DNA from: an uncultured Alphaproteobacteria bacterium
Lineage (GTDB): Bacteria; Pseudomonadota; Alphaproteobacteria; Acetobacterales; Acetobacteraceae
Reading direction: 5' to 3'
Assembly: GCA_963832895.1 (NCBI GenBank)
Contig: CAWHVQ010000004.1
Span: 89,507-153,506, forward strand
Length of the DNA stretch: 64,000 nt
The notes below the pieces were generated by a model. That model made no database searches. It had not been told where the DNA came from and worked only from the letters and a program-made list of their open reading frames with translations. Each line of letters opens with the position of its first letter. The stretch's first letter is position 1. This document shows, piece by piece, positions 2,661 to 42,224 of the stretch. The position numbers were made by a program, and so were the translations under genes.

Positions 2661-3227
2661 ATGCAGAACATCATGAACGCCGCCGCCGACCCGACCGGGT
2701 GGCACGGCACCACCATCCTGTGCGTCAGGCGGGATGGACACGTAACGATGGCCGGAGACGGCCAGGTCTCCATGGGTCAGACGATCGTAAAGGGGAACGC
2801 CCGCAAGGTGCGCCGGATCGGCGTCGACGGGGCGGTTCTGGCAGGCTTCGCAGGCGCGACCGCCGACGCGTTCACCCTGCTCGAACGGCTGGAGAGCAAG
2901 CTGGAGCGGTTTCCCGGTCAGCTCGAACGCGCCTGCGTCGATCTGGCCAAGGACTGGCGGACCGATCGCTACCTGCGCCGGCTGGAGGCGATGATGGCGG
3001 TGGCCGACAAGGACCGCAGCTTCACGCTGACCGGCACGGGCGACGTGCTGGAGCCGGAGGACGGCGTGATCGGCATCGGCTCCGGCGGCAACTACGCATT
3101 GTCGGCCGCACGTGCGCTGATGGCGGTGGACGGGCTGTCAGCCGAGGAGATTGCTCGGCGTGCCCTGAAGATTGCCGCCGACATCTGCGTCTACACCAAC
3201 AACAACGTCATATTCGAGACCATATAA
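2661..3227 (+). CDS. hslV: ATP-dependent protease subunit HslV
   Basis: [13 protein letters not shown]...MAGDGQVS...[10 protein letters not shown] is the canonical HslV N-terminal Thr protease. It lies directly upstream of hslU. Confidence 0.95.
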
Positions 3228-4553
3228 ATGGAAGTTCCCACCTATTCGCCGCGCGAGATCGTCTCTGAACTCGACCGCTTCATCGTCGGGCAGACCGACG
3301 CCAAGCGCGCGGTCGCGATCGCGCTGCGCAATCGTTGGCGCCGGCAGCAACTGCCGGAGGAAATGCGCGAGGAAGTTGTTCCCAAGAACATCCTGATGAT
3401 CGGCCCCACCGGCTGCGGCAAGACCGAGATCGCGCGCCGGCTGGCCAAGCTGGCGCAGGCGCCGTTTCTGAAGGTTGAGGCGACGAAGTTCACCGAGGTG
3501 GGCTATGTCGGCCGCGACGTCGAAAGCATCGCGCGCGATCTGGTCGAGGCCAGCATCACCATGCTGCGCGAGGCGTCTCGCAAGGAGGTGCAGGCGCAGG
3601 CCGAGCTGGCGGCGGAGGAGCGGCTGATCACAGCGCTGGTCGGCGAAGGTGCGGCGGCCGACACGCGCTCGAAATTCCGCCGCATGCTGCGCAACGGCGA
3701 ATTCGAGCAGAAGGAGATCGAGATCGAGGTCTCCCAGTCGGGTGGCATGCCGATCGGCCAGCTCGATATTCCGGGCATGCCGCCGGGGCAGGTTATCAAC
3801 ATCGGCGAGATGATGAAGGGCATGTTCGGCGGCGGCCGACCGACGCAGAAGCGGAAGCTTACCGTGGAGGCGGCGCGCCGCCTGCTGCAGGAGGAGGAAG
3901 CCGACCGGCTGCTCGACAACGACCGGCTGACCAAGGATGCGGTGTCACATGCCGAGAACAACGGCATCGTGTTCATCGACGAGATCGACAAGGTGGCGGC
4001 GCGCACGATGGAGGGCGGCTTCCGCGGCGGCGACGTCTCCCGAGAGGGCGTGCAGCGCGACCTGCTGCCGCTGATCGAGGGCACCACGGTCAGCACGAAG
4101 TATGGCACGGTGAGGACCGACCACGTGCTGTTCATCGCCTCGGGTGCGTTCCATCTGTCGAAGCCGTCCGACCTGCTGCCGGAGTTGCAGGGGCGGCTGC
4201 CGATCCGCGTGGAGCTGGCGCCGCTGTCGCGCGACGATCTGCGGCGAATTCTGACCGAGCCGGAGCACTCGCTGCTGAAGCAGTCCGCCGCACTGCTGGG
4301 AACCGAGAAGGTCACTCTGGTGTTCACCGATGACGCGGTGGATGCGCTGGCGGAGCTGGCCGCCGACATCAACGACCGCGTGGAGAATATCGGCGCGCGG
4401 CGGCTGCACACGGTGCTGGAGCGGCTGCTGGAGGAGATCAGCTTCACCGCCACCGACAAGGCGGGCGAGAGGATCACGGTTGACGCCGCCTATGTGAACG
4501 AGCGGGTGGCGCCGCTGGCCCAGAAGGGGGATCTGAGCCGGTTCATTTTGTAG
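3228..4553 (+). CDS. hslU: ATP-dependent protease ATPase subunit HslU
   Basis: 441 aa. [16 protein letters not shown], Walker [16 protein letters not shown], and C-terminal ...DLSRFIL. The start abuts the hslV stop. Confidence 0.95.
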
Positions 4554-10120: not shown

Positions 10121-10296
10121 GCCCGGGAGGCTCGTGTGAAGTCTCAGCGCCCCCGGGACTGCCGCACGGGCGCCAGCGATCACTGCCGTCGCGTTGGAGA
10201 TCTGCCACGAATTGGCGAAGCGACGGCGACCGGCTGACGGATTGACGGGGCAATCGGCATCGCATTAGGGTGCGCCCCGCCGGGATCGCCCCGGCC

Positions 10297-10352
10297 CTCG
10301 CGATTTGTCCGGCCGGATTGCGGCGAGGTGAAACAAGCGCGCTAAAGAGGCC
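10297..10352 (+). promoter_or_regulatory. candidate SAM-II (metA-element) riboswitch in the metZ leader
   Basis: CUCGCGAUUUGUCCGGCCGGAUUGCGGCGAGGUGAAACAAGCGCGCUAAAGAGGCC. It shows the remembered SAM-II landmarks in order: CGAUUU, GGC..UUGC..GCC, AAAC and CGCUAAAG-AGC. The 3' tail can pair with the loop (GGCC/GGCC) to form a pseudoknot. It lies 70 nt upstream of the metZ ATG. Confidence 0.5.
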
Positions 10353-10421
10353 AGCGGACAGCCCATCAGACGGGCTCAAGCTGCTCCACCGGTCGGGCCA
10401 AATGTTCAGAGGGCCCAGACG

Positions 10422-11633
10422 ATGTCCACCAATCCCGCCAGCTACCGTATCGCCACACAGCTCGTGCAAGGCGGTGTGCAGCGCAGCTCGTTCGGCGAGA
10501 CAGCCGAGGCGCTGTACCTGACCTCGGGCTACGTCTATGACAGCGCCGAGCAGGCCGAGGGCACGTTCGCCGGCACAGTCGATCACTACCAGTATTCGCG
10601 TTTCGCCAACCCGACGCTGTCGATGCTGGAGGAGCGGCTCTGCCTGATCGAGGGCGCCGAAGCCTGCCGCACGACGGCGACCGGCATGGCGGCGGTCAAT
10701 GCGGCGCTGCTCGCGCATCTGAAGTCTGGCGACCGCGTGGTGGCTTCGCGTGCGCTGTTCGGTTCGTGTCACTGGATCGTCTCGACGCTGCTGCCGAAAT
10801 TCGGCATCGCCACCGAGTTCGTCGATTGCGCCAACCTCGGGCAATGGCGCGCGGCGCTGTCGCGACCTGCGCAACTCGTGCTGCTGGAGACGCCGTCAAA
10901 CCCGATGCTCGAGCTGGTGGATCTGTGCGCGATCGCCGGTCTCGCGCATGCGGCGGGCGCGATCGTGGTGGTGGACAATGTGTTCGCGACACCTTTGCTG
11001 CAGCAGCCGCTGAAGTTCGGGGCGGACGTGGTGGTGTATTCGTGCACCAAGCATATCGACGGTCAGGGGCGTGTGCTTGGCGGCGCGGTGCTGGGCAGCC
11101 GCAAGTGGATCAACGAGACGCTGCAGCCGTTCATCCGCAACACCGGGCCGGCGATGTCGCCGTTCAATGCCTGGGTGCTGCTGAAGGGTTTGGAGACGTT
11201 GGGGCTGCGTGTGGATGCTGCCTGCCGAGGTGCCGTGACGATCGCCGAGTTCCTCGCCGCACGATCGGAGGTGACGCGCGTTTGGTATCCGACGCGCGCC
11301 GATCATCCGCAGCAGGAATTGGCATTGCAGCAGATGACGGCGGGCGGGACAGTCGTGACCTTCGAGGTGGCGGGTGGCAAGGACGCTGCGTTCAGCGTGA
11401 TGAATGCGTTTGGACTGATCGCGGTGTCGAACAATCTGGGTGATTCGAAGTCGCTGGCGACGCACCCCGCGACCACCACTCACATGCGCATCGGTCCCGA
11501 GGAGCGTGCGAAACTCGGCATCACCGATGGGGTGATCCGGCTCTCCATTGGGCTCGAGGATGTCGAGGACATCAAGGATGATCTGGCACAGGCGCTGACC
11601 ACGATCAGCGTTACCGCGCAGGCCGCCGACTGA
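10422..11633 (+). CDS. metZ: O-succinylhomoserine sulfhydrylase
   Basis: 403 aa. N-terminus YRIATQLVQGGVQRSSFGETAEALYLTSGYVY and PLP-lysine region VVYSCTKHIDGQGR (Cys/Met-metabolism PLP family). Confidence 0.9.
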   Translation: MSTNPASYRIATQLVQGGVQRSSFGETAEALYLTSGYVYDSAEQAEGTFAGTVDHYQYSRFANPTLSMLEERLCLIEGAEACRTTATGMAAVNAALLAHLKSGDRVVASRALFGSCHWIVSTLLPKFGIATEFVDCANLGQWRAALSRPAQLVLLETPSNPMLELVDLCAIAGLAHAAGAIVVVDNVFATPLLQQPLKFGADVVVYSCTKHIDGQGRVLGGAVLGSRKWINETLQPFIRNTGPAMSPFNAWVLLKGLETLGLRVDAACRGAVTIAEFLAARSEVTRVWYPTRADHPQQELALQQMTAGGTVVTFEVAGGKDAAFSVMNAFGLIAVSNNLGDSKSLATHPATTTHMRIGPEERAKLGITDGVIRLSIGLEDVEDIKDDLAQALTTISVTAQAAD

Positions 11634-26183: not shown

Positions 26184-27062
26184 ATGCCAGCGCGTCCAAT
26201 CTGGCGTGGTCATCTTCGGCTGGCACTGGTGTCGTGCCCGGTCGCGCTCTGGAACGCCAAGCACGATCGCGCGGCGATCAGGTTCAACATGATCAATCCA
26301 AAGACCGGACATCGGATCAAGATGATGACGGTGGATTCCGATACCGAAGAGGAAGTGCAGCGGCGCGACACGGTGAAGGGCTACGAGTTCCGGAAGGGCC
26401 AGTACCTGCTGCTGGAAGACACGGACTTCGAGAGCGTCAAGGTCGAGAGTTCCTCCGTGATGGCGATCGACAAGTTCGTCGAGGTGAATTCGATCGACCC
26501 GATCTACTACGCCGGGAGCTACTACCTGGCCCCAGACGGTGACGCCGGGCGCGACGTCTACGCCGTGCTTCTGGAATCCATCGCCGAGACCGGACGCATT
26601 GCGCTGGCGCGCGTCGTGATCGGGCAGCGCGAACGCACCATAGCGCTGCGCGCGATGCCCGGCGGTCTCGTTGCCCATACCCTGGACGAACAGCGCGACA
26701 TCAACGATGCGCGCGCGGTCTTCGGTGACGTTTCCGACATCAAGACCGAACCCGAGATGGTGCAACTCGCCAAGCAGTTGATCGATCGCCAGACCACGGA
26801 CTACGATCCATCCGACCTTGAGGACCACTACGAGACGCGGCTACGGGCGATGATCGAGGCGAAGCTGAAGGGCGAGGGCATCGATGTGAGCGAGCCGGAA
26901 GAACCGGATCGGAGCAACGTGATCGACCTGATGGCAGCGCTGAAGAAGAGCCTGGGCGAGTCAGCCGAGACGAAGGCGGCGCCGGCGAAGAAGCCGGCCA
27001 AGGAACCCAAGGAGAAGGCAGTCGCTCGGCCTGCCGCCAAGGCGTCCCGCAAGCGCGCCTGA
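26184..27062 (+). CDS. ku: non-homologous end joining protein Ku
   Basis: RPIWRGHLRLALVSCPVALWNA...IRFNMINPKTGHRIK...YYLAPDG plus a Lys/Ala/Pro-rich C-terminal tail, as in canonical bacterial Ku. Confidence 0.9.
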   Translation: MPARPIWRGHLRLALVSCPVALWNAKHDRAAIRFNMINPKTGHRIKMMTVDSDTEEEVQRRDTVKGYEFRKGQYLLLEDTDFESVKVESSSVMAIDKFVEVNSIDPIYYAGSYYLAPDGDAGRDVYAVLLESIAETGRIALARVVIGQRERTIALRAMPGGLVAHTLDEQRDINDARAVFGDVSDIKTEPEMVQLAKQLIDRQTTDYDPSDLEDHYETRLRAMIEAKLKGEGIDVSEPEEPDRSNVIDLMAALKKSLGESAETKAAPAKKPAKEPKEKAVARPAAKASRKRA

Positions 27063-32778: not shown

Positions 32779-33487
32779 GACGCTGCTGGCGCTCGACGCC
32801 GTGCGTGCCGGCTATGGTGAGTCGGTTGTGATCGACGGCGTCTCGCTCGAACTGGCGGAGGGCGGCAGTCTCGCGGTGCTCGGCCGCAACGGTGTCGGCA
32901 AGACGACGCTTCTGCTCACCATCATGGGCTTCACCCGCGTCGCGTCCGGCCGCATGCGCTGGCGTGGTCGCGACATCGCCCGGATCGCGCCGCATCGCCG
33001 GGCACGCCTGGGCATCGGCTGGGTCGCGCAGGAACGTGAGATATTTCCCTCCCTGACGGTCGAGGAAAACCTGACCGTCGCCGCGCGTCCCGGCCGATGG
33101 GATGTCTCGGCCGTATATCAACTGTTCCCGCGCCTGGCGGAGCGGCGGCGCCACATGGGAAGCCATCTGTCCGGCGGCGAGCAGCAGATGCTGGCCATCG
33201 CCCGCGCGCTGATGACCAATCCCGCACTGCTGCTGCTCGACGAGCCGCTGGAGGGACTGGCGCCGGTCATCGTCGATGAACTGGCCGAGGCCATCGGTCG
33301 CATGATGGCGGAGGAAGGCACTGCGATCATTTTGGTCGAACAGCACACGGAGGTCGCCTTGTCGCTGGCGCGCGAGGCCGTGGTGATCGAGCGTGGCACC
33401 ATCGCGCTGCGTGCGCCTACACGGTCGCTCCTGGCGGATCGGGCAAGCCTGGACCGGCTGATCGCTCCAATGCTTCCGGAGAGTTAG
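32771..33487 (+). CDS. livF: ABC transporter ATP-binding protein (LivF-type)
   Basis: Walker A GRNGVGKTT, LSGGEQQMLAIARAL and LLLLDEP. The start overlaps the livG end by 8 nt. Confidence 0.9.
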   Translation: MPETLLALDAVRAGYGESVVIDGVSLELAEGGSLAVLGRNGVGKTTLLLTIMGFTRVASGRMRWRGRDIARIAPHRRARLGIGWVAQEREIFPSLTVEENLTVAARPGRWDVSAVYQLFPRLAERRRHMGSHLSGGEQQMLAIARALMTNPALLLLDEPLEGLAPVIVDELAEAIGRMMAEEGTAIILVEQHTEVALSLAREAVVIERGTIALRAPTRSLLADRASLDRLIAPMLPES

Positions 33488-33599
33488 CAGCCTCCTGGGC
33501 GGAGCGGGGACGGCCGGGCGACCACACAACCGGGTCCAAGGTATGGGTGCCGGGTGCCGGGTGCAGTCGTGCGGCGAACAGGCGCCAATCGCCGTTGGA

Positions 33600-33761
33600 T
33601 CATCGTGGCGTGGCAGCCACGTGGGAAGCGCGGCCCCTGCCGGGCTTTGCCAATCCTGGTCCGCGGCCAAGGCGCACGAAAACGATCCAGAGACCGCCTG
33701 TCACCATACCGAGGCAAAACCAGGCGCCGATAATCTGAAAAATCCACTGCCACCAGTACAT
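33600..33761 (-). CDS. possible small membrane protein (not in ORF track, <60 aa)
   Basis: ATG preceded by AGGTGA-N9. MYWWQWIFQIIGAWFCLGMVTGGLWIVFVRLGRG... is hydrophobic for 30 aa and has a basic tail. No homology is claimed. Confidence 0.25.
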   Translation of the reverse strand: MYWWQWIFQIIGAWFCLGMVTGGLWIVFVRLGRGPGLAKPGRGRASHVAATPR

Positions 33762-33926
33762 GGCAACGCTCACCTGCTCTATCTCGACAGGAGGAACCTA
33801 GTCTCCAATTCGTGTCTATGATGTTGCCCACTTCATACATCGAATACATTCCGGAGGCGTTACCCGCACGGGTAATCACTGCCTCGCGTTCTCCTGAACG
33901 GAGTTCCTGCTCCTTTCGGATAAAAC

Positions 33927-33944
33927 GGCCCGGCGCGCCGGCCC
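33927..33944 (-). terminator. orphan GC-rich hairpin with T-run on the minus strand
   Basis: The minus strand reads GGGCCGGCGCGCCGGGCC followed by GTTTTATCC. No minus-strand gene lies upstream of it, because the next genes to the right are on the plus strand. Confidence 0.3.
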
Positions 33945-34027
33945 AATAAAATGGGATCCGACTTATCCATTAGTTAATCTTTCACCTTTCTCATCCCTTG
34001 TCGCGCGACCCGCGTGGAGAGTGCGAC

Positions 34028-34486
34028 GTGGATGATGTTCACCTCTGGCTGCAGGACCAGCCGCTTCTGCGGTCGCTTGCTCCACAGCATGTCGCGTGCG
34101 TTCGACAAATCACTCGAAGCGCGCAATTCGCGGCCGACGAGTTCGTGTTCCACGCCGCCGAACCGGCAGACCAATTCTATCTGCTGCGCGACGGTCTCGT
34201 CGCACTGCAGATGCAGCCGCGCGACGGACCGATCACGCTCGCCACGATCGGGGCCGGTGAGTTTCTCGGTGTATCATGGCTGCTTACGCCCCGTACCTGG
34301 ACATGGGACGCCCGCGCGCTTCAGGCAGTCAGCGCGCTGGCGATCGACGTGGGACAATTGATCGCGCTCTGCGAGCAGGAGCATTCCCTGGGGTATCGCT
34401 TCATGAAGCAGGTCGGCTCCGTCCTGGAGTGGCGCTTTCTGAACACTGCGCTTCAGGCGGCCGATCTGTATGCGGACTGGTCCTGA
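34028..34486 (+). CDS. stand-alone cyclic-nucleotide-binding-domain protein
   Basis: GTG start 6 nt after GGAGAG. ...FAADEFVFHAAEPADQFYLLRDGLVALQMQ...IGAGEFLGVSWL... is a cNMP-binding beta-barrel with no attached output domain. 152 aa. Confidence 0.75.
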   Translation: MDDVHLWLQDQPLLRSLAPQHVACVRQITRSAQFAADEFVFHAAEPADQFYLLRDGLVALQMQPRDGPITLATIGAGEFLGVSWLLTPRTWTWDARALQAVSALAIDVGQLIALCEQEHSLGYRFMKQVGSVLEWRFLNTALQAADLYADWS

Positions 34487-34558
34487 GTGACTCACCGCGC
34501 TCCTCCTCGTCATGACGGAGTGTCTCGCTCATTGGGCAGTTGGTATGGGGGGTGATCG

Positions 34559-35092
34559 ATGAAGCACGCGCCAGCTCCGGATTCACCGGTCAGCCAGGAC
34601 TTCATCGACAGAGTTCTGGCGAGGCAGGCCGGGCGTCCGGGCGCGCTCCTGGCGATCCTGCAGCAGGTCCAGAACAATCACCCTCGAAAGTATCTGCCGC
34701 TCGAGACGCTGCACTACATCGCAACCAGAACAGCGGTTCCCCTCTCGAGGATTTACAGCGTCGCGACGTTCTTCGCGTTGTTCAACCTCCAACCGCAGGG
34801 CCGCGACACGGTATCGGTCTGCCGCGGCACCGCATGCCACACCAGGGGTTCGCGCGATCTGTTCGAGAACCTGCTTATGAAGTTCGGGTTCCAGTCCTCG
34901 TCGGACGGCGAGACGGAGCAGTTGTCGCTCACCACTCCCGACGGCGGCACGACACTGCGAACCGTGGCCTGCTTCGGTCAGTGCGCGCTCGCTCCAGTCA
35001 TCGAAATCAACCACGCGATCTTCGGCCACATGAATGAAACCACGTTGCAGCGGGAACTGAAAGCGCTCGATCAACGGGGAGCTTCGACATGA
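34559..35092 (+). CDS. hoxE: [NiFe] hydrogenase diaphorase subunit HoxE (NuoE-like, 2Fe-2S)
   Basis: ...LLAILQQVQ...RIYSVATFFALFNLQPQGRDTVSVCRGTACH...VACFGQCALAPV is the NuoE/HoxE Cys pattern. The stop overlaps the hoxF ATG (ATGA). Confidence 0.85.
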   Translation: MKHAPAPDSPVSQDFIDRVLARQAGRPGALLAILQQVQNNHPRKYLPLETLHYIATRTAVPLSRIYSVATFFALFNLQPQGRDTVSVCRGTACHTRGSRDLFENLLMKFGFQSSSDGETEQLSLTTPDGGTTLRTVACFGQCALAPVIEINHAIFGHMNETTLQRELKALDQRGAST

Positions 35093-38000
35093 CGCCGATC
35101 CGCGACGCAAGCGCTTTCAACGCGGTTCGCGATGCCGGGCTGGCCAAGCTGCTGCCGTCGCGGCCACGCATCGCCGTCGGCATGGGCACGTGCGGAACCG
35201 GCAACGGATCGGAGAGTGTCTACCATGCCTTCGCCGATGCCATCGGTAAGCGCGGGCTAGACGTGCAGCTTGTGCAGACCGGGTGCTTTGGTTTCTGCGC
35301 CGAGGAGCCGCTGGTCAACGTGTGGAATCCCGGCGAGCCGCTCATAATGCTGCACCGCGTCAGGCCCGATCACGTCAGCCAGATTCTCGATTGCCTGACT
35401 GGCAATGCATTTCCCCAGGCACTGGTCCTGTGCAAGATCGAGCAGTGGGACCACGTCACGGCGCAGCTCGACTACGGCAGCGGGTTGCCGGATATCCCGG
35501 CCTGGAACGCGGTGCCGTTCTTCTCCGGACAGAAGAAGATTGTCCTGCGCAACTGTGGCCTCATCGATCCCTCCGACATCGAGGAATACATCGGGATTGG
35601 CGGCTATCAATCACTGCACAAGGTGTTGCACGATAACGCGCCCGAGGCGGTGAACGCACAGATCAAGCTGGCCAAACTCCGCGGCCGTGGCGGTGCAGGT
35701 TTCTCGACCGGCGTGAAATTCGAATATCTGCGCAGAGCGACCGGCGAGCGCAAATATCTCGTATGCAACGCCGACGAAGGTGATCCCGGCGCCTACATGA
35801 ATCGCAACGAGCTTGAGAGCGATCCACACTCGCTGCTCGAGGGCATGGCGATCGGCGGCTACGTCACCGGCGCCACGCAGGGCATCATCTATGTCCGCGC
35901 GGAGTACCCGCTGGCAGTGCACCGGCTTGCTGTCGCCATCGAGCAGGCGCGGACCTATGGCCTGCTGGGAGCGAACATCCTGGGTTGCGGCTTCAACTTC
36001 GACATCGAGCTGGTCGAAGGAGCCGGCGCTTTCGTCTGCGGTGAAGAGACGGCGCTGATCAGCTCGCTCGAGGGGATGTCGGGCCGCTCGCGGCCGCGCC
36101 CGCCGTATCCCGCCCAGAAGGGCCTGTGGGGGCATCCGACAAACATCAACAACGTCGAGACCTGGTTCAACATCCCGCCCATCGTCGCAAAGGGGCCGGA
36201 GTGGTTCACCTCGATCGGCAGCGTTGCCAGCCCCGGCACCAAGGTGTTCTCGCTGGTGGGCAAGATCCGGAATACCGGCCTTGTCGAGATGCCTCTCGGC
36301 ACCCCGCTCAGCAAGTTCGTCTATGACGCGGGCGGCGGCACCATGCCCGGCCATAGCGTGAAGGCGGTGCAGACGGGCGGCCCGTCCGGCGGCTGCATAC
36401 CTCACGACATGCTCGACACGCCCGTCGATTTCGAATCACTCGGCAAGCTGGGCTCCATCATGGGTTCCGGCGGCATGGTGGTGATGGACGACGACAACTG
36501 CATGGTCGACGTCGCGCGCTATTTCGTCGAGTTCACCCGCTCCGAATCATGCGGCAAATGCACGCCGTGCCGCGTCGGGTTGGACAAGGCCCTGCGGACC
36601 CTTACGCGCATTACCAAGGGACAAGGGCGCGAGGAGGATCTGGCCGAACTCGACACGCTGGGCCGGATGATCCGCGATACGTCGCTCTGCGGTCTCGGCC
36701 AGTCAGCGCCGAATTCGGTGCTCACCGCGCTGCGTCACTTCCGCCACGAGTTCGAGGACCACATCCGCGCCAAGCGCTGCCGCGCCGGCGTCTGCCAGGA
36801 ACTCGCTGTGGCACCGTGCGAGAACAGTTGCCCGATCCACATGAACATTCCGCGCTTCCTGCAGCTCTACAAGGAGAACCGTCTGGAGGACGCTTTCGAG
36901 GCGGTCATCTTCGACAATCCGCTCCCCGCCACCACCGGTCGCGTCTGCCAGCATCCCTGCGAACATCGCTGCCGCCGTCAGACGGTGGACGAGCCGATCA
37001 ACATGCGCGAGGTCCACCGCGTCATCGCCGATACCATCCTGCTGTCGGACAGGTTTGACGCGATGGTGGACCGTATCGTCGCCAGACGTCACCCCTCGAC
37101 CGGAAAGAAGGTCGCCATCGTCGGCGCCGGGCCGGCCGGACTGACGACCGCCTTCTACCTCGCCTTGCTGGGGCACGAGGTCGTGGTCTTCAACTCGCAC
37201 GCCGAACCTGGCGGCATGTTGCGCTTTGCTCTGCCGGCATACCGGCTGCCGCGCGAAGTGCTGGACCGCGAAATCGAAATCATCCGTCGCCTCGGGGTGA
37301 ACTTCGTGCTGAACTCCAGCATCGGTTCCGACATCTCGTTGAGCGACCTGGAGGCGAAATCCGACGCGGTCTTCCTGTCTCTCGGAACCTGGCAGGAAAC
37401 CGATGTGCGCGTGCCCGGCAACGAGCTCACCGGCGTCTTCGGCGCGCTGCACTTCCTGGAGGCCGAGGCCCGCGGCGAGGCGGTGCAACTTGGTCAGCGC
37501 GTGGTCATCATCGGCGGCGGCAACGCTGCCATCGATTGCGCCCGCACGGTGATCCGCATGGGCGCGTCGGCGACCGTTATTTACCGGCGCGAGCGCAAGG
37601 ACATGCCGGCAATTTCCGAGGAGGTCGAGGCCGCCGAGGACGAAGGTGTGCGCATCATCTTCCTCGCCTCGCCGCACCGCATCGTGGGTGAAGCGGGCGC
37701 GGTCAAGTCGATCGAGGTGACCAAGACGCTGCTCGGCGCGTTCGACACATCCGGACGGCGACGCCCCATCGACACCGGCGAGGTGCTCAACGTCAGCTGC
37801 GACAGCGTCATCCTGGCGGTCGGCGAAAGCGTCGACCGGGACTTCTGCCGCGGGACCGGCCTCGAGGTCACCCGCAACGGCATGCTCGAGGTCGACCGCT
37901 ACGCACCGACGACCAGCCGCGAAAGCATCTTCGCCGGTGGCGACTTCGTCACCGGCGCATCCAACGTCACGACCGCCATGGGCTGGGGCAAGGATGCCGC

Positions 38001-38256
38001 CAGGAACATCGACCGTCATCTCATGGGCACGTCCCGCTACGACACTGTCATGCCGGGCTTCCAGTACGACCAGGCGCAGCCGCAGCCCAGCCCCTGCGGA
38101 CGCCACCACGCGCATTTCCTCCCCGCCGCCGCCCGCGCCAAAACCTTCGATGAGGCCGTGTCGGCGCTGCGGGCGGACGAGGCCCACGAGGAGTCCAGCC
38201 GCTGTCTGCGCTGTGACATCCGAGAAATGACGGCGCTTGCCGTCTCCCGTCGTTAA
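35089..38256 (+). CDS. hoxF: HoxF-type diaphorase (Trx-like 2Fe-2S + NuoF FMN/NADH/4Fe-4S core) fused to a GltD/NfnB-like FAD/NAD(P)H oxidoreductase module
   Basis: NuoF motifs are RGRGGAGFSTGVKF, CNADEGDPGAYMNR and SESCGKCTPCRVG. From about aa 564 (nt ~36775) come the GltD-type clusters CRAGVCQELAVAPCENSCP and GRVCQHPCEHRCRR, a FAD fold VAIVGAGPAGLTTAFYL...EPGGML, and an NAD(P)H fold VVIIGGGNAAIDCART. It is a single uninterrupted 1055-codon frame. Confidence 0.85.
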   Translation: MTPIRDASAFNAVRDAGLAKLLPSRPRIAVGMGTCGTGNGSESVYHAFADAIGKRGLDVQLVQTGCFGFCAEEPLVNVWNPGEPLIMLHRVRPDHVSQILDCLTGNAFPQALVLCKIEQWDHVTAQLDYGSGLPDIPAWNAVPFFSGQKKIVLRNCGLIDPSDIEEYIGIGGYQSLHKVLHDNAPEAVNAQIKLAKLRGRGGAGFSTGVKFEYLRRATGERKYLVCNADEGDPGAYMNRNELESDPHSLLEGMAIGGYVTGATQGIIYVRAEYPLAVHRLAVAIEQARTYGLLGANILGCGFNFDIELVEGAGAFVCGEETALISSLEGMSGRSRPRPPYPAQKGLWGHPTNINNVETWFNIPPIVAKGPEWFTSIGSVASPGTKVFSLVGKIRNTGLVEMPLGTPLSKFVYDAGGGTMPGHSVKAVQTGGPSGGCIPHDMLDTPVDFESLGKLGSIMGSGGMVVMDDDNCMVDVARYFVEFTRSESCGKCTPCRVGLDKALRTLTRITKGQGREEDLAELDTLGRMIRDTSLCGLGQSAPNSVLTALRHFRHEFEDHIRAKRCRAGVCQELAVAPCENSCPIHMNIPRFLQLYKENRLEDAFEAVIFDNPLPATTGRVCQHPCEHRCRRQTVDEPINMREVHRVIADTILLSDRFDAMVDRIVARRHPSTGKKVAIVGAGPAGLTTAFYLALLGHEVVVFNSHAEPGGMLRFALPAYRLPREVLDREIEIIRRLGVNFVLNSSIGSDISLSDLEAKSDAVFLSLGTWQETDVRVPGNELTGVFGALHFLEAEARGEAVQLGQRVVIIGGGNAAIDCARTVIRMGASATVIYRRERKDMPAISEEVEAAEDEGVRIIFLASPHRIVGEAGAVKSIEVTKTLLGAFDTSGRRRPIDTGEVLNVSCDSVILAVGESVDRDFCRGTGLEVTRNGMLEVDRYAPTTSRESIFAGGDFVTGASNVTTAMGWGKDAARNIDRHLMGTSRYDTVMPGFQYDQAQPQPSPCGRHHAHFLPAAARAKTFDEAVSALRADEAHEESSRCLRCDIREMTALAVSRR

Positions 38257-38275
38257 GGAGCCATTCGTGCCTCAG

Positions 38276-38977
38276 CAGGTCTCAATCCGCATCGACAGCC
38301 AGCTCTGTACCGCCACCGAGGGACAGAACATCTTCCAGGTGGCGCATGACAACGGCAAATACATCCCGTCGCTATGTCATCTGGAAGGCCTCAGTTCGCC
38401 TGGGTCCTGCCGTTTGTGCCTAGTGGAGATCGCGGGCGTCGGCCGGCTGCTGCCCGCCTGCACGACACCGGTGCAGAACGGCATGTCGGTCAGCACCACC
38501 TCCGACAGCCTCGCGCACAATCGGCTGATGGCACTCGAGCTGCTGTTCATCGAGCGCAATCACATCTGCGCCGTGTGTGTCTCGAACGGCCACTGCGAAT
38601 TGCAGTCTCTGGCGCAGACCCTTGGGCTCACCCATGTCAACCTGCCGTACAATTTCCCGCGTCTGCCGGTCGACGTCTCGCATCCTCGCTGGGTGCTCGA
38701 CCACAATCGCTGCATCCTCTGCTCACGCTGCGTGCGCGTCTGCGACGAGATCGAGGGCGCGCATGTGTGGGACATCGCCGCGCGCGGAATCAATTCGATG
38801 CTCGTCGCCGAGCTTAACCTGCCATGGGGCGAGGCGCCTTCCTGCACCAACTGCGGCAAATGTGTACAGGTCTGTCCGACCGGCGCGCTGGTGGAGAAAG
38901 GCCTTGCCGTTGAAGAGATGACCAAGCGCAACAGTGTCATCACGGAACTCGCCGCGAAGCGAAGTGCCGGTTCATGA
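38276..38977 (+). CDS. hoxU: diaphorase Fe-S subunit HoxU (NuoG N-terminal-like)
   Basis: GTG start 6 nt after AAGGAG. 2Fe-2S motif CHLEGLSSPGSCRLCLVEI. 4Fe-4S motifs CILCSRCVRVCDE and CTNCGKCVQVCPTGA. Confidence 0.85.
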   Translation, partial: QVSIRIDSQLCTATEGQNIFQVAHDNGKYIPSLCHLEGLSSPGSCRLCLVEIAGVGRLLPACTTPVQNGMSVSTTSDSLAHNRLMALELLFIERNHICAVCVSNGHCELQSLAQTLGLTHVNLPYNFPRLPVDVSHPRWVLDHNRCILCSRCVRVCDEIEGAHVWDIAARGINSMLVAELNLPWGEAPSCTNCGKCVQVCPTGALVEKGLAVEEMTKRNSVITELAAKRSAGS

Positions 38978-39507
38978 CAAAGCCACGACTGGCCACGATG
39001 TGGCTCGACGGCTGTTCGGGCTGCCACATGTCGCTGCTCGATCTGGACGAGGCTCTCATTACCATCTCGCAGCGTGTCGACCTGGTTTACAGCCCGCTGG
39101 TTGACGCTCGCGAATATCCCCACGACGTCGATGTCGCTCTGGTCGAGGGGGCGGTCAGCACCGAGGAGGATCTGGAGAAGATCCGCCAGGTCCGCGAGCG
39201 CACGCGCATCCTGGTGGCACTCGGTGACTGTGCGACCACCGCCAACATCTCGGGCGCACGCAACCCGATCCCACTGAAAGACCTGTTCGAGAGCATCTAC
39301 GTGGCAGGCGCCGACGTGGACAAAGGCATCCCCGCTGACCCCGCACTTCCTGTGCTGTTGAAACACGCCGTTCCGCTGCACGACGTTGTCAAGATAGACC
39401 TGCACGTGCCGGGATGCCCGCCGTCCGCCCCAACGATCCTGTTCGTCCTCAACGAGCTTCTCGAGGGCCGCATCCCCGATCTCAGGGCCAGGACGCGCTT
39501 CGGCTGA
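38974..39507 (+). CDS. hoxY: [NiFe] hydrogenase small subunit HoxY
   Basis: WLDGCSGCHMSLLD, ALGDCA and VPGCPP. The ATG overlaps the hoxU stop (ATGA). Confidence 0.9.
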   Translation: MTKPRLATMWLDGCSGCHMSLLDLDEALITISQRVDLVYSPLVDAREYPHDVDVALVEGAVSTEEDLEKIRQVRERTRILVALGDCATTANISGARNPIPLKDLFESIYVAGADVDKGIPADPALPVLLKHAVPLHDVVKIDLHVPGCPPSAPTILFVLNELLEGRIPDLRARTRFG

Positions 39508-39517
39508 GGAGCCCACC

Positions 39518-40936
39518 ATGACGACCATTGTTATCGACCCGGTCACCCGCATCGAGGGCCACGCAAAGATCACCATTCACCTTGATGACAATGGCAAAGT
39601 CGTGGACACCGCCTTCCATGTCACTCAGCTTCGCGGGTTCGAAAAATTCTGCGAGGGACGGCCGTTCTATGAAATGCCGTCGATCACCGCACGCATCTGC
39701 GGCATCTGCCCGATCAGCCACCTGCTGACCTCGGCCAAGGCCTGTGAAGCCATCATGAGCGTGCGCATCCCGCCAACGGCGGCGAAGCTTCGCGAAATCA
39801 TGCATTGCGGGCAGGTTATCCAGTCCCACGCATTGAGCTTCTTCCATCTCTCGGCCCCCGACCTGCTGCTCGGCTTCAACTCCGATCCGACACGGCGAAA
39901 CCTGGTCGGCGTCATCGAAGACCATCCGCAGCTTGCCAAGGACGGGATCGCGCTGCGCAGATTCGGCCAGCAGGTTATCGCGGGCCTCGCAGGCGAGCGC
40001 ATCCATCCGTCATGGACAGTCCCCGGCGGCGTCAACGCGCCATTGGACCAAGCAGTCCGCGACCGCATCCTGGCCGCCGTGCCGGAGGCAAAGGCTCTGG
40101 CATTGCGCACTTTGGGCTTCTTCAAGGACGTGGTTGACCAGTTCGGCGATGAGATCGCTGTGTTCGGCTCGATGCCCACCATGTACGCCGGACTAGTCGA
40201 TGACCACGACAACATGCAGCTCTACGACGGCGGCCTGCGCTTCGTCGACGCCGAGGGCGAGACTGTGGTCGATCGCATGGCAGCCGAGGACTACCAGCAG
40301 TACATCGGCGAGGCGACGGTGCCACGGTCTTTCCTGAAGGCGCCATACTTCAAGCCGCGCGGCTATCCGGATGGGACGTACCGCGTCGGGCCTCTCGCAC
40401 GGCTGAATGTCGTGGCGCGCTGCGGCACCCAAGCGGCGGATGCCGAGTTCGCGGAGTACCACGAGAGATTCGGCAAGGTCGTGCAGAGCTCCTTCCACTT
40501 CCATTACGCGCGCCTGATCGAGATCCTCTACTGCATCGAGCGGATGGAGGCACTGCTGAACGATGCGGCGATCCTCGATCGCCATGTGCGCGCGCATGCC
40601 GGAGTGAACGCCTTGGAGGGCATCGGCATGGCCGAGGCACCGCGAGGCGTTCTGACGCATCACTACAAGGTTAACGAGGACGGCGCTATCGTCTGGGCAA
40701 ACCTCATCATCGCGACCGGGCACAACAATCTATCCATCGGCCGGAGCATCGGCCAAGTCAGTCGCCACTACATCGATGGCAAGCGGATTACCGACGGGAT
40801 GCTCAACCGCGTGCAGGCGGTGCTGCGGGCTTATGATCCATGCCTGAGTTGTTCAACGCATGCCGGCGGTCAGTATCCCGTGGAACTTCAGCTGCTGGAT
40901 GCCGACGGCACCATGTTGGATTCGGTTCGCACCTGA
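39518..40936 (+). CDS. hoxH: [NiFe] hydrogenase large subunit HoxH (group 3-like)
   Basis: N-terminus VTRIEGHAKI. L1 motif RICGICPISH. C-terminal L2 motif DPCLSCSTHA followed by a 22-aa extension, which is the expected protease substrate. Confidence 0.9.
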   Translation: MTTIVIDPVTRIEGHAKITIHLDDNGKVVDTAFHVTQLRGFEKFCEGRPFYEMPSITARICGICPISHLLTSAKACEAIMSVRIPPTAAKLREIMHCGQVIQSHALSFFHLSAPDLLLGFNSDPTRRNLVGVIEDHPQLAKDGIALRRFGQQVIAGLAGERIHPSWTVPGGVNAPLDQAVRDRILAAVPEAKALALRTLGFFKDVVDQFGDEIAVFGSMPTMYAGLVDDHDNMQLYDGGLRFVDAEGETVVDRMAAEDYQQYIGEATVPRSFLKAPYFKPRGYPDGTYRVGPLARLNVVARCGTQAADAEFAEYHERFGKVVQSSFHFHYARLIEILYCIERMEALLNDAAILDRHVRAHAGVNALEGIGMAEAPRGVLTHHYKVNEDGAIVWANLIIATGHNNLSIGRSIGQVSRHYIDGKRITDGMLNRVQAVLRAYDPCLSCSTHAGGQYPVELQLLDADGTMLDSVRT

Positions 40937-40944
40937 GTTCCCGG

Positions 40945-41388
40945 TCACTCGAGCACCAGTCGCCGCACCGTCGCGACCACCTCCGGCAGCGCGGAAGCGA
41001 CGGCGGCGGACAGTCCCTCTCGCAGCTCGAACGAACCGGCGCCAACTCTGACGAGGAATGCATCCGGAGTTCGACCATAAAGCTTGGTAGTTATGAACAG
41101 GAGCGTTCGCGGGTCAATGTGATGCGCCACGCCGGACGCCAGCGGTGCGGCCGGCACCGTCGCGACCACGATGGCGCCAGGCCGGAGGTCAACCGCGGCG
41201 TCGATGAAGACGACGCGATCCGCAACGCCGATGCGTTCGGCCAATTCCGGGGTGAGCTGGTGACACGCGATCACCTCGGCGCCTGCTATGGCAGCCTCAC
41301 CTGCAAGCGCCTGGGCAGCAGCCTGGCCCACTGCGTCGTCGCCGCGCAGCGTGTTGCCGTAGCCGATGACGAGCGCTTTCCGCGTCAC
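40945..41388 (-). CDS. hoxW: hydrogenase maturation endopeptidase (HoxW/HyaD family)
   Basis: GTG start. ALVIGYGNTLRGDDAVG...ACHQLTPELAE...VVFIDA is the family signature. Convergent with hoxH (8-nt gap) and 11 nt downstream of the SDR gene. Confidence 0.8.
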   Translation of the reverse strand: MTRKALVIGYGNTLRGDDAVGQAAAQALAGEAAIAGAEVIACHQLTPELAERIGVADRVVFIDAAVDLRPGAIVVATVPAAPLASGVAHHIDPRTLLFITTKLYGRTPDAFLVRVGAGSFELREGLSAAVASALPEVVATVRRLVLE

Positions 41389-41399
41389 CGGCGGTAGTC

Positions 41400-42224
41400 T
41401 CAGCTCTTCACCCCATAACGTTCCATGATCGGTGCCAGCAGCCCGCCGCCGCCGTTCATCGCCAGGTTGCCGCCATCCATCGGAATCGCCGCGCCGGTGA
41501 TCCAGTCGGCAGCATCCGACGCCAGCAGCACGGACAAACCCTTGATGTCGTCGGGTTGGCCGAAGCGTCCGGCCGGGATGCCGCGCAGAAACGTATCGCG
41601 CAGCCACGGATCGGCCGCCATGCGCGGCCCCAGCCCGTTGGCGCCGAGTACCTGCGCCGGCAGGATGCAGTTCACCCGCACGCCGCGCCCGACCCATTCG
41701 GTGCTCAGCTCGCGCGTCATCTGGATCACCGCCGCCATCGCCATGCCGTAGACCGATTGCGCCCGACCGAGCGATGACACGCCGGCGATCGAGCCGATGC
41801 TGATGATGCTGCCCTTGCCCTGCGCCAGCATCCGCCGGCCCGCAAGCTGGCAGGTATAGTAGCGACTGATCACCAGGTTGTGGAACGTGGCGTTGATATC
41901 CGCGAGCGTCATGTCCTCGGCCGCACCGGCCTTCGCCTCGCCGGCTACGTTGCCCAGGACGTCCACCCGCTTGAATTCGCGATCTACCGTGGCGAACACA
42001 CGGTCGATTTGATCGGTATCGGTCACGTCGCCGGCGATCGGCAATGCCTTGCGGCCGAGCTGGTGGATGGTGTGCGCTGTCGCATCGATGCCTGTCGCGT
42101 TGCGGTCCAGCAACACGAGGTCGGCGCCGGCCTCGGCCAACGCGAGTGCCATGGCGCGGCCCATGCCTTGCGCACTTCCGGTCACGACGGCGGTCCGGCC
42201 GGTCAGATCAAACAAGTTCGTCAT
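41400..42224 (-). CDS. SDR-family oxidoreductase (FabG-like)
   Basis: MTNLFDLTGRTAVVTGSAQGMGRA and YGMAMAAV (YxxxK-type region). 274 aa. Confidence 0.85.
   Translation of the reverse strand: MTNLFDLTGRTAVVTGSAQGMGRAMALALAEAGADLVLLDRNATGIDATAHTIHQLGRKALPIAGDVTDTDQIDRVFATVDREFKRVDVLGNVAGEAKAGAAEDMTLADINATFHNLVISRYYTCQLAGRRMLAQGKGSIISIGSIAGVSSLGRAQSVYGMAMAAVIQMTRELSTEWVGRGVRVNCILPAQVLGANGLGPRMAADPWLRDTFLRGIPAGRFGQPDDIKGLSVLLASDAADWITGAAIPMDGGNLAMNGGGGLLAPIMERYGVKS

Follow-up and report, generated by a model that had tools for sequence, protein, structure and literature searches.

Introduction

Group 3d Hox genes recovered from soil and peat metagenomes are routinely taken to encode simple NAD-linked bidirectional hydrogenases, and trimeric [FeFe] enzymes are taken to be bifurcators that work with NAD and ferredoxin. 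The closest described relative of the locus presented here is NiFe-HydABCSL of Acetomicrobium mobile, an electron-bifurcating [NiFe] hydrogenase of the Bfu family whose structure is deposited as PDB 7t2r (PMC8880783). In a true BfuB subunit a mobile domain with two [4Fe-4S] clusters (B3 and B4) follows the last Zn ligand, is fed by cluster C1 of BfuC, and reduces ferredoxin (PMC11829005, PMC12018979). The subject of this paper is a five-gene operon (hoxE, hoxF, hoxU, hoxY and hoxH) within a 64,000-nucleotide stretch of DNA, referred to throughout as the window, from an uncultured member of the Acetobacteraceae (contig CAWHVQ010000004.1 of assembly GCA_963832895.1). Its HoxF subunit is 1055 amino acids (aa) long and joins a front half with a predicted site for flavin mononucleotide (FMN) to a back half that resembles GltD, the small subunit of glutamate synthase, with predicted sites for flavin adenine dinucleotide (FAD) and a second pyridine nucleotide. 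Judged by its complement of cofactor sites, the product is probably a soluble five-subunit [NiFe] hydrogenase that links H2 to both NAD(H) and NADP(H), with no ferredoxin needed.

Several published features of BfuB and its relatives bear on the comparison. A site that is nowadays taken as a Zn site (PMC11829005) was first modelled in BfuB as a [2Fe-2S] cluster, B2, with the A. mobile ligands, and the second of its ligand positions is occupied by Thr in two thirds of BfuB sequences (PMC9304861). Close to the flavin, an A-F-M motif, the Phe of a GAGAF motif and a GGPSG loop have been reported as specific for bifurcating BfuB (PMC12018979). Among the Archaea, the group F hybrid [FeFe]/[NiFe] complexes described in 2024 include a HydB with a glutamate-synthase-type domain, seen in an AlphaFold model and modelled on 7E5Z_B and 7MFM_I (PMC11216029). 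This was the only related statement encountered in a search of the full-text literature, subscription-only papers being outside its scope, and no description of a bacterial fusion of HoxF or HydB with GltD was found there. The same literature and the solved structures revealed no characterised enzyme of the present composition, in keeping with the suspicion, voiced when the locus was first read from its sequence (hereafter the original prediction), that no Hox enzyme of this architecture had been characterised.

A Bfu-like flavin core in HoxE and HoxF

The five open reading frames (ORFs) lie exactly where the original prediction had placed them, and Pfam and NCBIfam agree with their reading as a [NiFe] hydrogenase operon. 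Within HoxF, Pfam recognises Complex1_51K (residues 192-363, E 1e-40), NADH_4Fe-4S (474-558), Fer4_20 (560-650) and Pyr_redox_2 (673-965), and the NCBIfam assignments are nuoF over 161-559 and the GltD-like PRK12771 over 527-1042, with PRK12814 likewise (to about 1047). Domain annotation with hidden Markov models has thus borne out what had been proposed for this subunit, namely the in-frame fusion of a NuoF part with a complete GltD-type module that has two Cys clusters and both an FAD and an NAD(P)H fold.

The front half of HoxF carries the motifs of an FMN/NAD(H) site (RGRGGAGF, DEGDPGAYM, F315 and GGPSG) and the ligands of the B1 [4Fe-4S] cluster (C488, C491, C494 and C534). The ligands of the Zn/‘B2’ site, C471, T509, H558, C564 and C569, correspond to C438, C476, H525, C531 and C536 of A. 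mobile HydB, with a constant offset of +33. Both sets of ligands are invariant among 67 aligned members of the family, as is the Bfu signature composed of A235-Y236-M237, F315 and GGPSG at 430-434. When residues 25-572 were matched to solved structures, the best chain was 7t2r_B, the HydB of A. mobile NiFe-HydABCSL (633 bits), followed by 9n5u_B (T. sibiricus NfnB, 625 bits), 9bov_B (C. saccharolyticus NfnB, 602 bits), 8oh5_B (S. ovata StnB, 593 bits) and then several [FeFe] HydB chains. The thioredoxin-like domain that precedes the core has three of the four canonical Cys residues (C35, C66 and C70), with C115 as a fourth located elsewhere (residues at window 35191-35433). All members of the NiFe-linked clade keep C115, which P0142, an FeFe-linked relative, lacks. 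The site in this domain could hold a [2Fe-2S] cluster with an alternative ligand, Zn as in the NfnB of C. saccharolyticus (PMC11829005), or nothing.

HoxE contains four Cys residues (C88, C93, C138 and C142), which form one [2Fe-2S] site and so supply the C1 cluster expected of a BfuC. Its best solved relatives are the bifurcating HydC chains 8a6t_C and 7t2r_C (97.7 bits for the A. mobile chain). The protein falls below the NCBIfam HoxE equivalog (117.6 bits against a cut-off of 224), and its identity is 51% with the HydC of an Omnitrophota system that has a fused HydB but only 30% with cyanobacterial HoxE. The label ‘Hox-type’, under which the operon was originally filed, therefore applies to HoxU, HoxY and HoxH, but not to HoxE and the N-terminal part of HoxF, which are closest to bifurcating HydC and HydB. 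On these sequence features, HoxE together with the front half of HoxF looks like the core that HydC and HydB (BfuC and BfuB) form in the electron-bifurcating hydrogenases.

A canonical Hox diaphorase with an appended domain was considered as an alternative and rejected, as the Bfu motifs, the Zn/B2 ligands and the best matches all point to a Bfu core with a swapped C-terminal domain. From the HoxF proteins of C. necator and Lichenicola, the A-F-M motif, the GAGAF Phe and the ligands of the Zn site are all missing, and the Pro of GGPSG is retained. In cyanobacterial HoxF the residues of the FMN site (AFM/F/GGPSG) are present, but C471 is not, and the protein ends before the positions of H558, C564 and C569.

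The GltD-like module of HoxF

The two halves meet at nucleotide ~36775 (HoxF residues 563-564) with no linker, the distance between the last Zn ligand, C569, and the first GltD Cys, C577, being only 8 residues. The ligands of the GltD [4Fe-4S] clusters are C577, C581, C620, C624 and C628, possibly H643, and C1039 and C1042, which complete the set from the far end of the protein. Alignment with HydB chains ends at residue ~572, and Pfam finds no other Fer4 family along the 1055 residues; a C-terminal ferredoxin-like domain with two [4Fe-4S] clusters (B3/B4), one of the criteria for a Bfu enzyme, is lacking from HoxF. The GltD module thus appears, from the alignments, to occupy the place of the ferredoxin-binding C-terminal domain of BfuB. 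The fusion itself stands as it was first described, and what had been viewed as a module added to HoxF is more specifically one that replaces the ferredoxin domain.

Loss of the nucleotide-binding residues on proper alignment had been named as a result that would undo the original prediction. These residues are retained and conserved across the family, for the FAD fold (GAGPAG 679-684, GGMLR 708-712 and GGD 950-952) as well as for the NAD(P)H fold (GGGNAAID 809-816 and YRR 832-834), where YRR is presumably the position at which relatives that depend on NADPH bind the 2'-phosphate.

Among solved structures the GltD half matches best with 9bov_A (366 bits), 9n5u_A (349 bits) and StnC, 8oh5_C (326 bits), and less well with NfnL, 5jca_L (~303-304 bits), and GltD, 2vdc_G (224 bits). 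The tail of HoxF, ending in EESSRCLRCD, aligns with residues 501-568 of 9bov_A and 501-569 of 8oh5_C, and in all three the ‘EAxRCLxC’ motif is C-terminal; in canonical NfnL and GltD this motif opens the protein. C1039 and C1042, which belong to this tail, are invariant even among fusions at 31-50% identity. The module would accordingly seem, from motif order and similarity, to be of the circularly permuted NfnA/StnC type. H643 is likewise invariant and aligns with StnC K170 and with a Glu of NfnB, which provide the unusual fourth ligand of the FAD-proximal cluster in those proteins (PMC10482914).

The possibility of a genuine glutamate synthase subunit was rejected on the basis of family scores and the absence of gltB: all NCBIfam GltD and GltA models stay below their cut-offs on HoxF (TIGR01318 at 297.6 against 482.95, TIGR01317 at 214.9 against 447.7), and the window has no gltB-sized ORF. 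Pfam and NCBIfam scans of the operon and of all but a few smaller ORFs of the window yielded no gene for an NfnA/NfnS-type partner.

An AlphaFold2 (AF2) model of HoxF (pLDDT 75, pTM 0.50) was used only for fold matching of each half. The first half matches BfuB chains (TM 0.77-0.85) and the second NfnL, 5jca_L (TM 0.80, rmsd 2.7 Å), and in this fold match no solved chain spanned both. The junction (residues 532-580) is modelled with a pLDDT below 50, so no inter-domain geometry is drawn from the model.

The hydrogen module

HoxU has 16 Cys residues and sites for one [2Fe-2S] cluster, one His-ligated [4Fe-4S] cluster and two further [4Fe-4S] clusters. It exceeds the NCBIfam HoxU equivalog NF005745 (345 bits against a cut-off of 333) and is 54% identical to Acaryochloris HoxU and 36% to the N-terminus of the [FeFe] HydA from a fused system; its best PDB match is residues 3-213 of 7t2r_A, A. 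mobile HydA, at 205 bits versus 131 for HoxU of a soluble hydrogenase (SH). HoxY has 4 Cys residues that make up a single [4Fe-4S] site (C14, C17, C86 and C148) and is 51% identical to its Acaryochloris counterpart. HoxH shows the group-3 motifs that had been recognised from the outset, L1 as RICGICPISH and L2 as DPCLSCSTH, plus a cleavable C-terminal tail of 24 aa. Its identity is 54% to Acaryochloris HoxH and 40% to that of C. necator, and in the PDB it matches A. mobile HydL, 7t2r_D (515 bits), better than the SH of H. thermoluteolus, 5xf9_D (418 bits). A Pfam scan found no Fe_hyd_lg_C domain in the operon, HoxY being a plain small subunit of 177 aa.

Overall, HoxU, HoxY and HoxH are 51-54% identical to the plasmid-borne Hox proteins of Acaryochloris and ~40% identical to the C. 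necator SH. The three are of the type expected for group 3d, but HoxE is not canonical, and HoxF exceeds the ~530-600 aa of a canonical subunit and has Zn/B2 ligands and a GltD module that the HoxF of Acaryochloris and of C. necator both lack. They can be viewed, by sequence similarity, as a group-3d-type hydrogen module resembling cyanobacterial Hox. Among solved enzymes, each of the five subunits finds its best or nearly best relative in the bifurcating NiFe-HydABCSL of A. mobile, with the non-bifurcating SH 5xf9 ranking lower.

Distribution and origin of the fusion

A search of 5.8 billion proteins recovered more than 120 clusters of full-length HoxF homologues, ~1050 aa long and 68-94% identical. 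When GTDB was scanned with one genome for each species, 402 candidate loci emerged, of which the best 80 were kept; full length was verified in those, and all 80 match HoxF from end to end, the nearest being 92% identical. Wherever the contig reaches far enough, the retained loci have the order hoxE, fused hoxF, hoxU, hoxY, hoxH, and the search for such fusions next to hoxY and hoxH that the original prediction had called for thus reveals one gene order across three phyla. All of these loci are from metagenome-assembled genomes (MAGs), many from bog, fen and soil, which according to the titles of the deposited records belong to Alphaproteobacteria (Roseiarcus, Acetobacteraceae, Hyphomicrobiales), Acidobacteriota (Terriglobia, Bryobacterales, Solibacteraceae, Paludibaculum) and Chloroflexota. 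In the alignment of the family all cofactor ligands on both sides of the junction are invariant.

Among the Acidobacteriota, hoxU, hoxY and hoxH are separated by stretches of 0.1-1.2 kb at the loci L015, L021, L023, L025 and L027. In L027 (4872-6182, 13377-13814) a gene for a four-helix protein of the 23S-rRNA-intervening-sequence type lies between hoxY and hoxH, and there is a second [NiFe] large-subunit gene upstream.

A more distant search among 1.84 billion cluster representatives added fusions that are full-length and 31-50% identical. The FMN and B1 motifs are degenerate in several of the remotest, and two large clades keep all sites, one from the Clostridia and the other from Omnitrophota, Bacteroidota, Ignavibacteriota and Deltaproteobacteria. 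Six loci from these clades (from Clostridia, Bacteroidota, Omnitrophota, Ignavibacteriota and one metagenome contig) consist of hydC, a fused hydB and a [FeFe] hydA of ~600 aa. This architecture is not peculiar to the window: the same fused subunit is widespread beside [FeFe] hydrogenases, and a HydB with a glutamate-synthase domain is present in the archaeal hybrids (PMC11216029).

The N-terminal part of HoxF is 59-62% identical to the fused HydB of Bacteroidota and Omnitrophota and 52% identical to cyanobacterial HoxF; the GltD part is 44-46% identical to the same fused HydB proteins and has no cyanobacterial counterpart. In a rough neighbour-joining tree of the BfuB core, constructed without support values, the NiFe-linked fusions group with the FeFe-linked fusions of Bacteroidota, Omnitrophota and Ignavibacteriota, a tree that cannot tell a single from a double origin of the Clostridial fusions and those of the Bacteroidota/Omnitrophota/NiFe assemblage. 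The HoxE and HoxF::GltD subunits keep together as a pair, which in four other phyla accompanies [FeFe] HydA. Since HoxE and HoxF have higher identity to the fused [FeFe] systems but HoxU to cyanobacterial Hox, the window operon is, by pairwise comparison, a chimera that combines a HydC-HydB::GltD flavin module typical of [FeFe] systems with a group-3d HoxUYH. Such a combination of modules parallels the relation of FeFe-HydABC to NiFe-HydABCSL.

Some loci of the wider family have features of their own. In a clostridial-clade locus (L085/L086, 3601-11940) the genes hydC, fused hydB and hydA are preceded by a gene for a sigma54 activator with a [FeFe]-hydrogenase-like sensory domain, and in an Omnitrophota MAG (L088, 5456-15147) a second, canonical HydC/HydB/HydA set directly follows the fused HydCBA set. 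On contig DAOWLF010000102.1 (506-5697, locus L090) the 50%-identical fusion P0142 is accompanied by a NuoE-like gene, a 132-aa ORF and a 403-aa NuoG-like Fe-S protein, with no adjacent hydrogenase catalytic gene. This locus may encode an NAD(H)/NADP(H) oxidoreductase that shares the core but has no hydrogenase part.

Proposed function and alternative explanations

All cofactor sites for an unbroken chain from the NiFe centre through the HoxY cluster, the four HoxU clusters and B1 to FMN are present and conserved, and beyond these there are sites for the [2Fe-2S] cluster of HoxE, two GltD [4Fe-4S] clusters, FAD and a second dinucleotide fold. With the B1-FMN-C1 site of the Bfu enzymes, from which C1 shuttles to the C-terminal domain of BfuB, as the mechanistic template (PMC11829005, PMC12018979), H2 would be split at the NiFe site and its electrons would pass from HoxY over the HoxU clusters to B1 and on to FMN, where hydride would presumably be exchanged with NAD+/NADH. 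A second branch would start from the surroundings of FMN, most likely by way of the HoxE cluster, as happens in Bfu enzymes, and run through the two GltD clusters to FAD, the predicted site of hydride exchange with NADP+/NADPH, provided that NADP(H) is the ligand there.

Within the dual-nucleotide function regarded here as probable, NAD(H) and NADP(H) may be coupled obligatorily or may react independently, and each of these options is put forward tentatively and to about the same degree. If they are coupled, the enzyme could possibly be a ferredoxin-independent confurcating/bifurcating hydrogenase in which NADP(H) replaces ferredoxin on the gated, HoxE-mediated branch of the Bfu core. The reaction that one might then envisage, 2 H2 + NAD+ + NADP+ <-> NADH + NADPH + 2 H+ with an obligatory 1:1 ratio, would make the enzyme a gated transhydrogenase as well, a suggestion that is equally tentative. 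In favour of coupling are the retention of the whole Bfu signature, the location of the module on the gated branch, and the cost to the cell of an ungated short circuit from NADPH to NAD+. With in-vivo potentials (E') assumed at about -280 mV for NAD and about -380 mV for NADP, Nernst estimates place the ceiling of H2 evolution at ~3 Pa for NADH alone, ~7 kPa for NADPH alone and ~150 Pa for 1:1 confurcation. Evolution of H2 from NAD(P)H, in fermentation or hypoxia among the facultative anaerobes of peat and soil, is about as likely as H2-driven formation of NAD(P)H; in the uptake direction a coupled enzyme could charge the NADPH pool at H2 above ~150 Pa.

A number of points weigh against these proposals. 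The potential gap between the NAD and NADP couples is small, and at high H2 the reduction of NAD+ and of NADP+ are both exergonic, so coupling is not thermodynamically required. Cyanobacterial HoxF has AFM/F/GGPSG without demonstrated bifurcation (PMC7363133), and hence these motifs are no proof of coupling. The NADP(H) specificity of the GltD site is suggested by motif similarity only, and the low-confidence junction of the AF2 model gives no firm position of the GltD clusters relative to FMN and the HoxE cluster. Finally, the partner that was proposed for the GltA domain of archaeal HydB is ferredoxin, not NADP(H) (PMC11216029).

This last point has its counterpart in an alternative whereby the GltD-like domain, instead of catalysing at an NADP(H) site, serves to bind and reduce a low-potential protein (ferredoxin or flavodoxin, for example), and the enzyme is an ordinary NAD/ferredoxin-bifurcating NiFe-Bfu hydrogenase whose domain for binding ferredoxin is unusual. 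The domain does sit at the place of the ferredoxin-reducing domain of BfuB, and NfnB-type modules reduce ferredoxin via two clusters in NfnAB (PMC10482914). However, the FAD and NAD(P)H Rossmann folds with GGGNAAID and YRR are under strong purifying selection and would be unneeded for a mere ferredoxin dock, and all characterised GltD-type modules among the relatives found use NAD(P)H, and we consider this explanation unlikely.

It is also conceivable that bifurcation takes place at the FAD of the GltD module, as in Nfn, with NADPH as the mid-potential donor and one electron sent up to the NiFe site (H2) and one down to FMN and NAD+. Homology to NfnB/NfnL (5jca_L at ~303 bits, TM 0.80) and the conservation, as R712, of the Arg equivalent to NfnB R201 are in accord with this notion, and 2 NADPH + NAD+ -> H2 + NADH is thermodynamically sensible. 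In the permuted NfnA/StnC type, however, the equivalent Arg makes no N5 contact and the FAD has been shown to be non-bifurcating (PMC10482914). The operon moreover encodes no NfnA/NfnS-like subunit ([2Fe-2S] + FAD) that could be a second exit, which leaves the FAD with one evident exit for electrons. The NfnAB analogy drawn in the original prediction, with the bifurcating FAD in the GltD subunit, hence turns out to be the weaker reading, given a permuted module with a type of FAD that does not bifurcate (PMC10482914) and no partner, and it is regarded as quite improbable.

A third option is that the NADPH module is mainly regulatory or protective and reactivates an O2-inactivated NiFe site and its clusters, in the manner of NADPH acting via HoxI in the C. 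necator SH. In its favour, the organisms concerned live in soil and peat (Alphaproteobacteria, Acidobacteriota and Chloroflexota), and the gene 5' of hoxE encodes a cyclic-nucleotide-binding (cNMP) domain protein that we take to be HoxI-like in size and domain type. That NADPH specifically activates the SH has been established (reference 12, as cited in PMC7363133). Against this, the same fused subunit is common beside the [FeFe] hydrogenases of strict anaerobes, for which O2 reactivation is no issue, and a module of ~480 aa with three cofactors would be an expensive means of repair, all of which makes a mainly protective role very unlikely.

That the fusion is an artefact or a pseudogene, produced by a lost stop or an indel at ~36.7-36.8 kb as the original prediction had worried, is a notion for which no supporting evidence was found and which is ruled out by the fused ORF in all 80 genomes and more than 120 clusters, by the invariant ligands and the lack of a linker, and by the distant fusions at 31-50% identity in other phyla.

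Operon layout and neighbouring genes

The coordinates of the operon, of the parts of HoxF and of the two flanking genes are collected in Table 1. The ATGA overlaps that had been noted at hoxE/hoxF and hoxU/hoxY are present.

Table 1. Features of the hydrogenase locus, with positions in the window
Feature	Position	Strand	Description
cyclic-nucleotide-binding-domain protein	33998-34486	+	162 aa, PF00027 (E 1e-14); directly 5' of hoxE
hoxE	34559-35092	+	177 aa, NuoE-type/BfuC-like, PF01257 (E 4e-35)
hoxF	35089-38256	+	1055 aa, NuoF/BfuB core fused to GltD-like module
HoxF residues 1-159	35089-35565	+	N-terminal thioredoxin-like domain, BfuB ‘B5’ position
HoxF residues 160-572	35566-36804	+	NuoF/BfuB core: FMN/NAD(H), B1 and Zn/‘B2’ hinge sites
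HoxF residues 573-650	36805-37038	+	GltD-type Fer4_20, PF14691 (E 2e-20), two [4Fe-4S] sites
HoxF residues 673-980	37105-38028	+	FAD and NAD(P)H Rossmann folds, PF07992 (E 3e-32)
HoxF residues 981-1055 and stop	38029-38256	+	tail ending EESSRCLRCD, permuted cluster motif
hoxU	38237-38977	+	246 aa; start codon uncertain, first in-frame start is TTG 38237
hoxY	38974-39507	+	small subunit, 177 aa, PF01058 (E 1e-27)
hoxH	39518-40936	+	[NiFe] large subunit, 472 aa, PF00374
hoxW-like	40945-41388	-	maturation endopeptidase, ~147 aa from GTG 41388, TIGR00072

A hoxW-like gene for a maturation endopeptidase, absent from the original prediction, is convergent with hoxH, its end being 9 nucleotides past that gene. 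Its product has the motif GYGNTLRGDDAVG, and residues 109-247 of the long ORF score 78.8 bits with TIGR00072 (NCBIfam cut-off 47.45). A homologue adjoins hoxH in ~30 related loci, and in the Acidobacteriota loci matched in the comparison it is on the same strand as hoxH. Apart from hoxW, comparison of the related loci showed no conserved neighbourhood beyond the operon. Family scans found no hyp genes in the window, and in a promoter and terminator scan of 33400-41800 nothing exceeded shuffled expectation.

The cNMP-domain protein may, tentatively, belong to the hydrogenase system. Its gene is conserved in only 7 related loci. In the C. necator SH operon, hoxW is followed by a gene whose product also has a cNMP domain and shares 21% identity with the window protein (pairwise E 2e-8). 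We take this product, whose record title says only cyclic nucleotide-binding domain-containing protein, to be HoxI, the NADPH-binding subunit; the window protein matches it in size and domain type. Orthology with HoxI was set aside in view of the low identity and the few loci that keep the gene, leaving the protein as a loose lead.

Elsewhere in the window there is a SAM-alpha riboswitch (Rfam RF00521, 63.9 bits) at 10287-10366 (+), 5' of a gene for a Cys/Met-metabolism pyridoxal-phosphate enzyme (10422-11633), in accord with the assignment of the window to the Alphaproteobacteria. Two further features are unrelated to the hydrogenase locus, namely a Ku-domain gene (non-homologous end joining) at 26184-27062 (+), and, at 2661-4553 (+), a proteasome-family gene (PF00227) beside an AAA+ ATPase gene, a pair read as HslV/HslU-like.

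Implications

A complete NADPH/FAD module, placed exactly where ferredoxin would otherwise be dealt with, is present in a large and conserved subset of these hydrogenases: at least 80 genomes have the NiFe version, and the FeFe version occurs in many more. If the proposed function is correct, reducing power would be vented as H2 from NADH and NADPH directly, or taken up from H2 into both, with no low-potential ferredoxin involved, which would change the modelling of fermentative H2 production and of H2-driven biosynthesis in peat and soil. Should the two nucleotides indeed be coupled, this would be the first Bfu-type enzyme without a ferredoxin substrate, and many hydrogenases of soils, sediments, peat and guts that classification rules would place in ‘group 3d’ or ‘[FeFe] A3’ would turn out to be NADP-coupled. 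The system would also be a natural test case for the unresolved Bfu mechanism, as its low-potential branch ends in an easily assayed two-electron hydride acceptor of known potential. Moreover, a soluble H2:NADP+ [NiFe] enzyme is of interest for cofactor regeneration.

Comparison with known systems

In A. mobile HydABCSL, as here, NiFe large and small subunits pass electrons through a NuoG-like subunit to a BfuBC flavin core, and the Zn/B2 ligands and Bfu motifs are shared. The two systems differ in that A. mobile HydB has the ferredoxin-reducing C-terminal domain with two [4Fe-4S] clusters where the GltD/FAD/NADPH module is found in the window, and in that A. mobile HydA is a 692-aa protein with a degenerate H-cluster domain whereas HoxU is Hox-like and 246 aa long; A. 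mobile is a member of the Synergistota, whereas the hosts here are soil bacteria. Cyanobacterial HoxEFUYH (group 3d) has the same five-gene composition, but its HoxF is ~550 aa long, without a GltD module, as against 1055 aa.

The Nfn-Bfu/Stn transhydrogenases (NfnABC of C. saccharolyticus and T. sibiricus, StnABC of S. ovata; 9bov, 9n5u and 8oh5) combine the same BfuB/BfuC core with the same type of GltD module and thus have NADPH at FAD and NAD at FMN in one complex. In those enzymes the GltD module belongs to BfuA, where it supplies B1 along the mid-potential path, BfuB retains its ferredoxin domain, ferredoxin is the third substrate, and there is no hydrogenase. The window system carries the module on its BfuB homologue and not on HoxU, and has HoxUYH as the entry for H2. 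NfnAB (NfnSL) and GltD share the homologous module with two [4Fe-4S] clusters, FAD and NADPH, but the cluster motif of the window protein is permuted and no NfnA/NfnS or GltB partner is encoded.

The [FeFe] HydC-HydB::GltD-HydA systems have the same fused subunit with a NuoE-like partner upstream, differing in their catalytic partner, which is a [FeFe] HydA of ~600 aa and not HoxU, HoxY and HoxH. No paper that describes them was found in the full-text search. Hydrogenase classification rules handle GltD and NuoF domains as separate items (PMC5037454), and those rules that are keyed on a neighbouring NuoF domain (PMC5037454 and the methods of a bioRxiv preprint) would presumably file the HydB::GltD systems under [FeFe] group A3. 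The archaeal group F hybrids, compared here by their published description, resemble the window operon in joining a group-3 [NiFe] large subunit to HydC, to a NuoG-like subunit and to a HydB that bears a glutamate-synthase domain (PMC11216029); their HydA-HyhS fusion with a true H-cluster has no equivalent in the operon. Taken together, these sequence comparisons show a system that shares most of the features by which Bfu enzymes are recognised but not the B3/B4 ferredoxin domain, and that is neither an Nfn-Bfu enzyme nor an NfnAB nor a glutamate synthase.

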